A DNA stretch of 64,000 nt from Eledone cirrhosa. Its lineage: Eukaryota. Positions 34,191 through 47,006 of this stretch are shown here, in pieces. The DNA is taken from the NCBI GenBank assembly GCA_964016885.1, contig OZ024742.1, forward strand, positions 108,190,001 through 108,254,000, given 5' to 3'. The notes under the pieces are model-generated. The model had not been told where the DNA came from. It was given only the letters and a program-made list of their open reading frames with translations, and ran no database searches. The stretch's first letter is position 1. Each line of letters starts with the position of its first letter. Made by a program: the position numbers and the translations under genes.

Positions 34191-37100
34191 ATGGCTGAAT
34201 ATTTTATCGATGTTAGATGTGAAATTAAATCATCTCTAGCGAAAATCGTTTCTCAGAGCAACAAGTAATATGATGAATATGTATGAAGATATAAATTATT
34301 GTTTGCAGATCGTTTATTTCGACGAGATGAGCGGCACCGTGCCATCAATAACGTCGGTAATAGCGTCGAACTCATTTTGGAGTTGAACAAATTTTGGAGT
34401 AAAGATTATGATACCATATATACCAGGATTACCGGATATATAAACAATCACACCAACTGAAAAATGTGCGTTTTCATAAATTAATAGTGTACATAACAGA
34501 ACTACTATAGTTTATGTTGATTACTGACACATGGAAATATGTAAAGATAAACATATTTTAGTAATTCATTTCTAGGAGATAATTACATATATGATCAGTA
34601 TATATGTACAAATGACATGCACGATTAAATGTATGAGTAACATTGGAAAAATAAGTATTTATATGAACAAATGTAGGGATAGAACCCAGAAACTTGTGAT
34701 AGGAGAGCGAACAGGATTGATAGAAAAGATTTATATAAAATTTAAAGAATTACAGACACACACAGACACAGACGCAGACAGACAGACAAACAGACAGACC
34801 GACATAGACACACAGACACACACGCACACACATATATATATATGTACGCCAGTTTGCCATGTGTTTTATACAATATAGTATATTTACCTCTATAATTACA
34901 TATTGAGGGCGTTCTCTTCAATAATTACAACTATACGTTCAGGCTATATATATATATATATATATATATATATATATATATATATATATATATATATATA
35001 TATATGTATACACATACATATATATATACACACATACACACACACATACATACACACATACATACACACACACATATATATATATACACACACACACATA
35101 CATACACACATATATATATATATGTAAATATATATATATATATACATACATAACATACACACACACACACTCACACACACATATATATATATATATAGTA
35201 TAAAGAAAACGAAAAATCAGTGATGCATCTGGACTTAATTTATTGCGTGTTACAATTGTTTCGCCGGCAGGTAGCTCGAGACATGGTCCTTGTATGGATC
35301 TGGCTGATTCTACTTCTGCGGGTGTTTCGTCTTGAACAAATTTTATCACTGGGTGTTATCATAACAAAACACCCTAAAAAAAACTACTTCCACTCTTGTC
35401 ATGCCATTGGCTGTTTTTATTCCACGTTATCGCAAGTTCTGGTCAGTATCTGCTGCCACACGGTTAATCAGCCATTTTCCGTCCGACACATTTCTATGGA
35501 GTCATGCTGGGTTCAGTATTTCACACGTCTGTTCACACTTCAGAGTAAGCACCCACACATACTAATATGCACACATAAACACACACACATGCAGACACAT
35601 ACATATGCATGCACACACGTACGCCTACATGCGCAGACACACATACATACATAATAGTATATATACACACACACTGTCCCTCACTTCCACGGACCCAGTC
35701 ACACCCACTTGTAGATAAATATCGCCACCAGCCTTATGACGGCTGCTTACTTCGCGCCCTGTATCAGGTGGGATAAGCATGGCCTACTCAATCATACACA
35801 TACATACATATGCGCGCACACACCCAACTTTATATACATTTGTATATATATATATATACACACACTCATACACACACATATATACATACACACATACATA
35901 CACATACATACATATACACACACATGTGCATACACATATATTTACACATATATACATACATACACATATATATATACATATATATATACATATATATACT
36001 CACACATGCCTACACACACATACAAATACACATACGTACACAAACAATACATACACACATACACACACACACACACACACACACACACACACACACACAC
36101 ACACACACACACACACACACACACACACACACACATATATATATATGTATATATATATATATATATATATATATATATATATACAATAAAAACGACAACT
36201 TAACATGCATACGCACATCCACATATATACATACATATACCTACGCATATGTCGATATACATACACCTACAGATGCATACGCACACGTGTTGCCACATGC
36301 ATACACCTGCACATATGCATATCTGCCTACACACACATGTGCTTCCACATATATAAACAAAACCGTAAATTATTAGTTAAAAATTCATTATGCATTAAAA
36401 AAAAAATATACCATAAAATAAGGGTAAATTACCGTAACATAAAAAATATACAATATAATATAATATACAATATGATATATATATATACTCTCTCTCTCCC
36501 CATATATATATATATATATATATATATATATATATATACAGACATGTACACAGATTCATACATGCATATACGGATATATACGGATATATATAAAGGATAT
36601 GTGATAAAGTAATACAACAAGAATAATAGTAATAATATAAAGCATATATATTCCATGTATAATCATTCGCACACATTCCTATGAGATGCACATAAACACA
36701 TACATGTATGCACAAATACTCATACACCCATATAGAGGCCCATATATGCATGCACCCGCACCCACACATATATCTATATATCTATCTATATATATATATA
36801 TATATATATATATATATATATATATATATATATATATATATATATATATATATATATATATATATATATATATATATATATATGTATATATATATATGTA
36901 TATATATATATATGCATACACACATATATATACACTCACTTACCCACCCACACACACTTACTCATACGTGGCAATACGCACATACGCACACATACATAGA
37001 CACACACACACACACACACACACACACATATATATATATATATATATATATATATATATATATATATATATATATATATGTATATATATATATATATGGT

Positions 37101-37969
37101 GTCTGCCAACTCGTTTTCGAGTACGGCGACTACTTTATATCCATGTAGGAGAAGCCCTACCGATGCGCTGAACGAGTGTGACTTTTTAGTCCAGCTAGCG
37201 GCTTGAAAACTCTGGTACAAACACTACACATGTGACAATTATTGACACATAGTGCTGGGCCAATGGTACCATGTGACGACAAGTGCAGAGAGATCTGCAG
37301 ATATAAAGCAATGCCTGTGCCGTGAAGCTTTTATAGTGACCAAAGGCACTGCACAAAGCCAGTCCCACTCTCTTAACCAAGATGATATTTACCAAAAAGA
37401 AGAACAAGTCAACATCATTGGATACCATCAGGGTTGATATATATATATATATATATTCATATATACACACATATATACATATACACACGTACACCCACAT
37501 TCCGCCACATATGTATATACATGCACATGTCTGCACATACACGCGCGTATAAGCTCATGCACACACGCACCCATGCCCATACACACACCCCACCACCCAC
37601 CCACATATATATGTATATACATACACATCTACACACACACACGTACATATACCCACGCACAGGTCCACACATAAAAACACGCGAATATAAACACAATATG
37701 ATAATAAGATAAAATAAATAAATAAATTTACAATATTTTAGGGTACATTAAAATCTGTATGTAACTGCATAAATAGGTACAAGAAAAAAAGGGGTAAATA
37801 AAAAACAAAAAACAAAAAAAAACGGTTAAAATAAAAAACGTGGGGAGGGGGGGTCGAGGGTACAGGAGAAGGTGCTTGTGTCCATGTGATATACGACACA
37901 CAGGTATTATGAGATGCAAACTTGTGTCCGTGTATAGAACAGGTAACAGTACAGCACAATAATAGAACA

Positions 37970-38150
37970 ATAATTGTTTCTACTTTAGGCACAAGGCCAG
38001 CAATTACCCAGTGCATTACTGGTACTTTATTTTATCTACCCCGTAAGGATGAAAGGCAAAGTCAACCTCGGCGGGATTTGAACTCAGATCGTAAAGGGAC
38101 GTAACTATGCTGGAAAGCATGGCGTCCGGCCCTCTACCGATACTGCTAAT
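37970..38150 (-). mobile_element. SINE family A inserted only in the left arm of the PLE inverted repeat
   Basis: The right arm has the empty site gtgattattactatcattattgtgctg at 41830-41856. Confidence 0.8.
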
Positions 38151-38516
38151 GATAGTAATAATCACTGTTCCAAAGTGGACCAGGTGGCACCGTTTTTGGG
38201 GTGTGCTGTTCTATATGTTTAGGGCAAGGGCCGGGCGGCACTGGGCCCCGTGTCATCCGGTCCCGGCCATGCGGTGTATCTTCCAATGTTGTGTGCCCGG
38301 TTAAGTGCGAACTTGGTTTACATATGTTTGCCTCACACGTTGGACACCGTCATCATGGCATGGTGTCAAGTCCCCTAATCCCGTTGGGCCAATCGGGTCT
38401 GTGCGTATTCGTTCCCATTACCCCTGCCTGCGTCACCCGGCGGATTCCATGCTGCAAATGTGCATCTTCTCTGGTGTCTGCATGTCATGATAATTTCAGA
38501 CTTCCGGTTGACGGCG

Positions 38517-38882
38517 TCATCCTTCAGTTTGACTATCCTCATGGCCCTCGTGTAGGCACAATCGGCACTTTCTACTTCCGGCCAAATATGCCCTCGCGTG
38601 GCGAACGATACTCCATTCCCGGGCGTATAGAGTGCCGTGGTCTTTCAGGTCCCACACCAGGTCCGCTAACCTAGTGGAGTGCCTTTTGCTACGGTCCCTG
38701 AAGGAATTCGAGTAATTATACATCCGCGATTTAAAGGTCGTGGATGTTGTGCCGATGTAGGTTCGATGCGGGTTTTGGGTTGTAACCACACACTTGTATA
38801 TTAAGTCTTTAATCAAGCATTTTCCCTGTAGGGGGCACCGGGTGCCCGCTCTACAGTTGCAAGTGCCCGCTCTACAATGCAT
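38517..38882 (-). pseudogene. Inverted duplicate of the PLE GIY-YIG endonuclease domain
   Basis: CNCRAGTRCPLQGKCL..LIYKC..YIGTT...FKSR..CRLCLHE, near-identical to ORF 40841-41548. Confidence 0.9.
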
Positions 38883-45169: not shown

Positions 45170-45435
45170 GAAAGTGAGGTTTTTTTTTACAAATTGTAAA
45201 ATAACCGAGGTGTCCTACAGGAGTTAAAGTATAAAGAAAAAGAGATGAAATCGAAAATGCAACTGGAGTCTTATTTTTTTTTTAAATTTGTATATTTATT
45301 TGGTTCCTTTACCGGTTTCGCAGTTCTTCTGCTTTTCAAAGGGTGAGTTGAGATGGAGGGTCTGTGGTTTTTCTCACATCTAAAAAAAAAATAAGACTCC
45401 AGTTGCATTTACGATTTCATCTCTTTTTCTTTATA
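45170..45435 (-). mobile_element. Short fold-back insertion in (TA)n with a minimal U3-A8 hammerhead at 45302-45344
   Basis: 45230-45282 is inverted at 45381-45434. Minus strand ccct TTGAAAA gcag-aagaa-ctgc GAAA ccgg TA aagg. Absent from the left PLE arm. Confidence 0.7.
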
Positions 45436-46783
45436 TATATATATATATATATATATATTTATATATATATATATATATATATATATATATATATATATAT
45501 ATATATATATATATATATATATATATATATATATATATATATTTATATATATATATATATGGGGATATATATATAACACATTGTATATTATATTACATTG
45601 TATATGTTTTATGTTACGGTAATTTACCGTTATTTTATGGTATATTGTTTTTTTATTCCATAGTGTATTTTTAATTTTTAATTTACGGTTTTGTTTATAT
45701 ATGTATATGTGGAAGCACATGTGTGTGTAGGCATATATGCATATGGTCAGGTGTATGCATATGGCAACACGTGTGCGTATGCATGTGTAGATGTATGTTT
45801 ATGCGTAGTTATATGTATGTATATATGTGGATGTGCCTATGCATATTAAGTTGTCGGTTTTTATTGTATATATATATATATATATATATGTGTGTGTGTG
45901 TGTTTGTGTGTGTGTGTGTGTGTGTGTGTGTGTGTGTGTGTGTGTGTGTGTGTGTGTGTGTGTGTGTGTGTGTGTGTGTGCGTGTCTATGTACGTGTGTA
46001 TGTATCGTTTGTGTACGTATGTGTTTTTGTATGTATGTGTATTTGTATGTATGTGTGGGCATGTGTGAGTATATATATGTATATATATATGTGTATGTAT
46101 ATATGTGTAAATATATGTGTATGCACATGTGTGTGTATATGTATGTGTATGTATGTGTGTATGTATATATGTGTGTGTATGAGTATATATATATATATAT
46201 ATATATATATATATATATATATATATATATATACACATGTATATAAGGTTGGGCGTATGTATGTGTGCGCGCGTATGTATGTATATATGTGTATGTTTGA
46301 GTAGGCCATGCTTATCCCACCTGATACAAGGCGCGAAGTAAGCAGCCGTGATAAGGCTTGTGGCGATATGTATCTACAAGTGGGTGTGACCGGGTCCGTG
46401 GAAGTGAGGGAGAGACTGTGTGTGTATGTTTACTTTTATGTATGTATGTGGGGGGTGTGTGTCTGTGCATGTAGGCGTACGTGTGTGTATGCATAAATAT
46501 GTATCTGTCTGCATGTGCGTGTGTTTATGTGTGTATATTATTATGTGTGGGTGCTTACTCAGAAGTGTGAACAGACGTGTGAAATACTGAACCCAGCATG
46601 ACTCCATAGAAATGTGTCGGACGGAAAATGGCTGATTAACCGTGTGGCAGCAGATACTGACCAGAACTTGTGATGATGTGGAGTTAAAACAGCCAATGGC
46701 ATGACAAGAGTGGAACTAGGCTTTTTTTAGGGTGTTTTTTTATGATAACACCCAGTGATAAAATTTGCTCCAGACGAAACACC

Positions 46784-46874
46784 CGTGTCTGAAAGAACCA
46801 GCAGAAGTAGAATCAGCCAGATCCATACAAGGACCATGTCTCGAGCTACCTGCCGGCGAAACAGTTGTAACACG
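46784..46874 (+). ncRNA. Hammerhead motif with long stem II at the 3' end of the large PLE
   Basis: cgtgt CTGAAAGA accagcag...ctgccggc GAAA cagttg TA acacg, followed by aataaa. The core has one extra A. The left-arm copy (~35245-35320) has lost the CTGA core by deletion. Confidence 0.65.
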
Positions 46875-47006
46875 CAATAAATTAAGTCCAGATGCATCAC
46901 TGATTTTTCGTTTTCTTTATACTATCTACACTCTACTCTGCCGAATATCGAGTGCTAATTTTGACATACCGCCTATGAAAGCACCATAGCTACCATAATA
47001 CACAAC

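Follow-up and report, generated by a model that had tools for sequence, protein, structure and literature searches.

Penelope-like elements (PLEs) of the Hydra clade, among them Hydra-1_Obim of Octopus bimaculoides and Penelope-13_HM, are the closest described relatives of a 12-kb fold-back found between 35195 and 47006 in a 64,000-nucleotide stretch of the Eledone cirrhosa genome (contig OZ024742.1, positions 108,190,001 to 108,254,000; hereafter the window). The clade is marked by a DKT motif, a CxCX5C linker and an endonuclease (EN) without the CCHH motif (PMC8557442). The element described here shares with this clade the DKT motif, the linker, a C-terminal GIY-YIG domain, (TA)n flanks, a 3′ hammerhead-like motif and an inverted, 5′-truncated copy at the 5′ end (PMC8557442). 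Such a copy, together with a one-sided extension quoted as 30–40 bp, is a hallmark of PLEs (PMC8557442). The extension has been linked to two adjacent start sites of the reverse transcriptase (RT), and cleavage and extension on both strands were obtained in vitro (PMC11167929). Transduction of host DNA by PLEs (PMC6431247) and the birth of microsatellites from non-LTR (long terminal repeat) elements (PMC3812793) have been reviewed.

The fold-back consists of two head-to-head copies of a decayed PLE, in which the open reading frame (ORF) is followed by a long shared tail rich in simple sequence. The mirrored sequence terminates in a 3′ end of element type, and thus the microsatellite-bearing tail was most likely reverse-transcribed together with the ORF; that the fold-back, tail included, was made by retrotransposition is very probable. 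The explanation that we favour, with a probability of a little under one half (about 0.45), is one Hydra-clade integration event at (TA)n, in which the terminal block would be the lineage's own pseudo-LTR (pLTR) end displaced by a captured or accumulated spacer.

Organization and Divergence of the Two Arms

The right copy, a decayed and 5′-truncated Hydra-clade PLE, occupied 38878–47006 on the plus strand, and the left arm (35195..38864, minus strand; self-BLAST and alignments) comprised the GIY-YIG half of the ORF and the whole shared tail. A chain of inverted collinear matches ran from 38864/41060 outward to ~35195/46925 in the self-BLAST of the window and in pairwise alignment, which also showed that the order of the unique blocks and of the degenerate TG/TA text was identical in both arms. 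This confirmed the sequence-only reading, which had proposed a Penelope-like fold-back mirrored down to its degenerate microsatellite text. Of the 12-kb extent given there, ~2.3 kb were later insertions, and the shared tail amounted to ~3.0 kb. Without these insertions the truncated ORF and shared tail measured ~5.7 kb, a descriptive trait that exceeds the <3 kb usual for the Hydra clade. The two copies were linked at 38863..38876 by a 14-bp duplication of 38842–38855, and the inversion point fell where the ORF copy is truncated at its 5′ end. The outer end of the left arm continued into (TA)n and cryptic repeats at 34945–35196.

The arms differed at 156 of 2777 aligned columns (5.6%; Jukes–Cantor distance, JC, 0.058), namely 106 of 1928 in unique blocks and 50 of 849 in cryptic repeats. 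There was no difference between the divergence of the coding part (31/486) and that of the tail (5.5%; p = 0.51), and heterogeneity over 15 blocks was borderline (p = 0.055). The endonuclease differences fell on the three codon positions in the ratio 10:10:11, and nine of the 31 were synonymous (dN/dS ~0.7, p = 0.25), which is the pattern of post-insertion decay of two initially identical copies. The arms thus look like copies that were identical at first and then, as far as their sequences indicate, decayed neutrally after a single insertion event. This neutral decay removed the only route within the window to proving a family-wide tail. An origin of the arms from two active lineages, of which the codon-position counts gave no sign, was rejected. 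On a scale where a JC of 0.065 equals 18 million years (My) (PMC13282606), half of 0.058 gives, as a crude inference, an age of roughly 8 My for the fold-back.

It is highly improbable that this structure arose from separate insertions of two members of a long-tailed family or from an error of assembly. The divergence of 5.6% is high relative to that of the other fold-backs (0.4–4.1%), which speaks for such an origin. However, the arms showed no synonymous excess, the junction was flush, and the arm-specific insertions and 156 substitutions excluded a collapsed or mirrored read, so that the earlier argument against an artefact held.

The Terminus and Its Signature

The terminal block (46545..46925, plus strand) contained a hammerhead-like motif (46784–46874), AATAAA (46876–46881) and a T-rich end common to both arms. 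Both arms ended at the same base, just past these three features, and their outer ends abutted (TA)n. The left arm went straight into (TA)n, and the right arm first carried 81 more bases (46926..47006, plus strand), a one-sided extension or "tail" in the PLE sense, before (TA)n began at 47007. The same stop base, one-sided extension and flanking (TA)n were seen in all five fold-backs whose ends were read. The other four were the second Hydra element of the window (~57727–61259), a PLE at ~11860–13834, an array of 538-bp units and a small element at 45168..45431 (hereafter the 45170 element), with one-sided extensions of ~40–110 bp; an irregular Hydra remnant (3765–5449), a sixth fold-back, was left out of the comparison.

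This combination of a common stop base, a one-sided extension and flanking (TA)n favoured retrotransposition over a local inverted segmental duplication, in which an ordinary Hydra copy with 3 kb of host flank would have been pasted inverted at the 5′ end of that copy by replication or repair. The neutral, uniform divergence and the lack of further copies fit a local duplication equally well, the tail partly resembles host simple-sequence DNA, and the duplicated 14 bp at the junction may be a scar of repair. However, three coincidences would be needed: insertion exactly at the 5′ truncation, a far breakpoint exactly at the hammerhead/AATAAA/T-rich terminus, and the geometry of the four other fold-backs. 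We consider a local duplication quite unlikely.

By descriptor, the motif at 46784–46874 had stems I–III in type I topology and a core of eight bases, the sixth position of which was non-canonical. Its stem III resembled, by eye, the Hydra hammerheads in File S2 of PMC8557442. Among the Rfam matches listed (150 of 275) there were only simple-repeat look-alikes below the gathering score, and the searches with the terminal block and the array gave nothing relevant. The terminus of the main element resembled that of the 45170 element, and none of 1000 shuffles scored as high. The likeness of the 81-bp extension to the end of locus L001 was equalled by 24 of 1000 shuffles in one of six comparisons, and was not relied on.

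Composition of the Shared Tail

In the right copy, the tail upstream of the terminal block consisted of three modules on the plus strand. Module 1 (41549..42386) comprised a GC-rich post-stop block, a T-rich block, cryptic TG/TA repeats and (TA)n; module 2 (44495..45167) a unique block of 46% GC, (TA)n and cryptic TG/TA repeats; and module 3 (45432..46544) (TA)n, a T-rich block, (TA)n(TG)n, cryptic repeats and a unique block of 52% GC (46288–46412). The longest stop-free stretches of the tail blocks were 41–95 codons. Internal duplication of the modules was rejected: 72 comparisons gave two weak pair scores (z 4.4–4.6) and no modular repeat.

The claim that this region is largely microsatellite was overstated. 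Pure dinucleotide repeats made up 15–16% of the shared tail, and purine/pyrimidine-alternating simple sequence 43–44%, or 52–53% at a looser threshold; simple sequence accounted for 36% of the whole left arm and 23% of the whole 11.7-kb span. The shared tail was still richer in simple sequence than all 185 other 3-kb segments of the window (maximum 38%, median 8%), and the tails of three other PLEs in the window had 0% at the same threshold. The sense strand of the mid-tail was T+G-skewed by 0.31–0.34 with all 19 bins positive. Across 206 overlapping background windows the skew reached at most 0.32, and its median was 0.05. This uniform polarity gives modest support to the view that the tail may have been long resident in one unit. 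All five cryptic-repeat clusters of the left tail (35554–37661) and their right counterparts (42129–46549) read TG, not CA, on the sense strand. Adenosine-to-inosine editing was not supported as a source of the TG polarity for this event, as there was no A/G excess between the arms: the unique blocks had 30 A/G and 24 C/T differences, and the cryptic repeats 15 and 12.

The distance from stop to hammerhead was ~2.9 kb in both arms, compared with ~0.55 kb in the second Hydra element of the window, whose core was read by eye, and with 127 and 103 bases in two of four related loci, the other two being without a 3′ end. These four loci were host-type contigs within bacterial assemblies. No hammerhead core was found in module 1, and none other on the sense strand between the stop and the terminal block of either arm, the inserted array excepted.

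Origin of the Tail

Here, the following course is proposed for a displaced pLTR end. The endonuclease would have nicked both strands at a (TA)n site, and reverse transcription would have begun twice at the same 3′ terminus of one RNA, which would have run from the ORF through the spacer of ~2.9 kb to the hammerhead-bearing end. One cDNA may have extended far into the ORF and the other may have halted in the endonuclease domain, after which the two would have been joined with a small templated duplication. The terminal block would be the lineage's own pLTR end, and a spacer that was either captured or built up over time would have moved it away from the ORF, as happened in Pen1_Av; the microsatellites would be passive cargo.

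A displaced own end was preferred over a one-off read-through because no native ribozyme was left near the stop. In a read-through, transcription of a donor that lacked or ignored its own 3′ end would have continued across (TA)n tracts and a stack of elements in one orientation, as far as the hammerhead-bearing end of an unrelated element downstream; the tail would be chimeric and the fold-back itself PLE-made. Locus L002 contains such a stack of modules that end in hammerheads next to (TA)n, the tail alternates blocks of 43–52% GC with blocks of 18–21% GC, and its terminus is like that of a small non-autonomous element of the window, the 45170 element. However, a native hammerhead was missing near the stop and undetectable in the middle modules. 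The cryptic repeats had also decayed before they were copied, a sign that they had probably been resident for a long time. A read-through is conceivable but doubtful.

Several observations weigh against the displaced pLTR end. This ORF and tail were seen together at a single locus, and the RNA intermediate is thus inferred. The hammerhead ribozyme announced at 46784 by the sequence-only reading retained its three stems, but besides the non-canonical core it is degenerate: it had no Rfam match, its fold z-score was −1.44 (17 of 200 shuffles as good), and the left arm had no hammerhead core owing to a 16-bp deletion. The descriptor was loose, with 16 core starts in the window and 1–9 in 20 shuffles. 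The terminus was unlike the ends of the second Hydra element, element C and the array, for which 683, 405 and 400 of 1000 shuffles, respectively, scored equally well, and the (TA)n context made a target-site duplication unreadable. Uniform polarity equal to that of the mid-tail occurred in two of the 206 background windows. All 27 curated Hydra entries (PMC8557442 File S1) are 1.1–3.0 kb long.

A further proposal was that the element retrotransposes its own target sites in a feedback loop. A high-copy family with a fixed multi-kb pLTR would spread (TA)n and (TG)n genome-wide, including its own targets, and would help to explain a microsatellite-rich genome. In its fullest form, a cephalopod Hydra lineage would have a fixed 3-kb, strand-polarised, microsatellite-rich 3′ region. 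Since reverse transcription begins at the far end and is often cut short, its copies would be mostly tail-only stretches of (TA)n and (TG)n, into which the lineage itself and non-autonomous hammerhead elements could then insert. The simple-sequence content of the tail, which exceeds that of the 185 other segments, is in line with this proposal, as are the targeting of (TA)n by Hydra elements (PMC8557442), the reuse of two carried tracts at this locus, a precedent in shrimp (PMC7878876), and the tail-only copies that 5′ truncation would be expected to leave. However, a single event was seen, and the unique tail blocks (markers 44503–44744, 46288–46412 and 46545–46925) had no third copy within the 64-kb window. 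The other PLE tails of the window contain no simple sequence at the threshold used, which means that the majority of PLE copies here are free of it. The searches gave no close protein relative (best identity ~42%), and most microsatellites of the window lie outside this element. Both forms of the proposal are unlikely.

The searches for further copies found none, at low power. The tail had no match in the four related loci. Searches for close protein relatives of the ORF (0 of 1 and 0 of 2954 candidates) and for a frame over the terminal block (0 of 18 candidates) were negative and of low power, and an exact 30-mer of the terminal block had no match in bacterial and archaeal genome contigs, a comparison of little power in the wrong domain of life. 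If the tail proved high-copy, it would offer a route by which a (TA)n-targeting element makes a niche for itself, an issue that was not settled for the shrimp genomes rich in simple sequence repeats (SSRs; PMC7878876). Clusters of microsatellites would then arise in a self-reinforcing way and could be followed through the three marker blocks. If the tail is single-copy, it is ordinary PLE transduction.

Coding Region and Clade Placement

The ORF (38885..41548, plus strand, stop at 41548) encoded RT followed by the C-terminal GIY-YIG domain, in this order by tblastn with full-length relatives. It was broken and lacked ~60–100 N-terminal residues; across the pieces that could be aligned, the frame changed four times and was interrupted by two in-frame stops. 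Full-length relatives aligned to it only from about residue 60–110 on (tblastn), which indicates that the right copy is also 5′-truncated; the segment expected to hold the N-terminal RWK motif was lost through this truncation. The DKG motif was replaced by DKT (SDKT in the first ORF piece). The CxCX5C linker before the EN was intact in the left arm (CNCRAGTRC), and its last Cys was changed to Phe in the right arm. The EN had no CCHH motif, contained CRLC and CRH, which correspond to the CxxC and CxH motifs located towards the end of the clade's EN, and aligned by eye with the Hydra rows of figure S7 in PMC8557442. For all eight ORF pieces, Pfam gave no relevant match.

A protein search with the second Hydra element of the window gave 8931 relatives, of which 150 were listed; 10 were looked up among the matches listed, and the three named ones all belonged to Argonauta hians. 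A quick tree comprised 42 relatives of at least 600 residues and the two window elements, with curated Hydra references and outgroups left out. In it the ORF grouped with the second window element, three A. hians proteins and P0001 (SH-aLRT 96), and its best identity to the relatives of this set was ~42%. This grouping would point to an octopod host. Two ORF linkers were long, at 40060–40618 (186 codons) and 40750–41063 (104 codons); the former was open in frame, and the equivalent linker had 53–72 residues in four relatives measured. The ORF had 48% GC and was G-richer than the other two PLE ORFs of the window. The terminal hammerhead motif differed by eye from that of Hydra-1_Obim (PMC8557442), and this points to another family. 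Judged from its sequence, the element is a Hydra-clade PLE of a family other than Hydra-1_Obim.

Later Insertions and Landing Pads

Two insertions were specific to the right arm. The first was a fold-back array of 538-bp units (42387..44432) with type I hammerhead motifs, retrozyme-like and situated in a (TA)n tract; ~95 bp of left-arm sequence were missing at its site in the right arm. Its halves were 2.5% apart over 927 columns. The descriptor fitted two array units (42524 and 43062, minus strand), two inverted units had a mutated core by eye, and there was no Rfam match. The second was the 45170 element (45168..45431), a 264-bp fold-back with a degenerate hammerhead-like fold and an internal divergence of 1/53 (1.9%). 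A partial second copy lay at 25254–25341, and it was adjoined by a 20-bp minisatellite of 130 copies (25472–28075). The left arm alone carried an insertion at approximately 37959..38146 (plus strand), a putative short interspersed nuclear element (SINE), as the sequence-only reading had labelled it; related pieces occurred at 8172, 20738, 21003, 34093 and 50098. These three insertions, the stop at 41548 and the AATAAA at 46876 were all where that reading had placed them.

The array and the 45170 element each lay in a (TA)n tract, and the corresponding tracts of the left arm were empty, which indicates that carried (TA)n was reused as target at this locus. The internal divergence of both inserts (2.5 and 1.9%) was below the 5.6% of the main element. 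Two carried (TA)n tracts thus served here as landing pads for younger hammerhead-type elements. This part of the earlier proposal stood. The idea of carriage is not new (shrimp, PMC7878876). The locus is a natural experiment, in which the (TA)n sites have stayed empty in one arm and are occupied in the other. Small palindromic elements with canonical hammerhead cores were observed in or near (TA)n at 47262–47807, 51364–51427, 52591–52932 and 7403–7579. The region is a hotspot of hammerhead-ended insertions.

Other Elements in the Window and Related Loci

The second Hydra-clade fold-back (57727–61259) was young, with arms differing in 3 of 713 columns, and had a short tail without microsatellites. 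At its inner junction, 27 bp were duplicated in tandem and a piece of the ORF of 72 bp was inverted, and the element was directly followed by a 238-bp direct repeat split by (TA)n (61260–61716). A third PLE fold-back (11860–13834) belonged to another clade, had the RT motif WKRYLDD and arms 4% apart, and is presumably Neptune-like. The remnant at 3765–5449 (minus strand) consisted of a Hydra endonuclease with a 1.3-kb AT-rich tail and, far downstream, 104 bp of its own 5′ end in inverted orientation. A hammerhead-like motif (3219–3181) past a microsatellite tract beyond this remnant possibly makes it a second long-tailed case. Broken Rep/helicase frames at 17124–20873 (minus strand) are putatively Helitron-like, judged by their motifs.

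At locus L002 (1100–2640), an animal-type sequence in a bacterial genome bin, a Hydra end was followed within 1.4 kb by (TA)n and three further hammerhead-ended modules of the same orientation, with (TA)n after each of them; two modules were recognised by descriptor and the third by eye. At locus L001 (1129–1500), host-type DNA in a symbiont assembly, a Hydra 3′ end ran directly into the ORF start of the next copy, forming a partial tandem.

Comparison with Known Systems

The Hydra-clade entries of PMC8557442, at 1.1–3.0 kb, have the hammerhead near the end, whereas here ~2.9 kb of microsatellite-rich sequence separate stop and ribozyme and the ORF linkers are long. A literature search with most subscription journals and Repbase outside its coverage found no paper in which a Hydra-clade element is described as having a 3′ region of several kb that is rich in microsatellites. 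The size range of this region in the clade would be widened from ~0.1–0.6 kb to ~3 kb, and regions of such length would cause repeat annotation to break elements into "simple repeat" and "unknown" pieces.

The Pen1_Av and Pen3/Pen4_Av elements of Adineta vaga share a captured spacer between the ORF and the 3′ terminal repeat, long in-frame ORF insertions and inverted pLTRs (PMC3846280). However, they belong to the Penelope/Poseidon clade, their spacers are 0.9–1.5 kb long, vary between copies and are not described as microsatellite-rich in the accessible text, and their pLTRs are mostly direct (PMC3846280). The linker at 40060–40618 recalls the long ORF insertions of A. vaga Penelope. In Penelope of Litopenaeus vannamei, SSRs within copies move with the element and then elongate, as is comparable here, but the accessible text makes no link to reuse as target sites (PMC7878876). 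The 538-bp array resembles non-LTR retrozymes in its tandem units with type I hammerhead motifs (bioRxiv 10.64898/2026.07.22.740005); this likeness is limited to a secondary insertion, which here also has the form of a head-to-head fold-back. There are published precedents for inverted copies, for the targeting of (TA)n, for captured spacers (Pen1_Av) and for Penelope copies that carry microsatellites (shrimp). The tail is unusually long for the Hydra clade, and it lies within a known insertion architecture.

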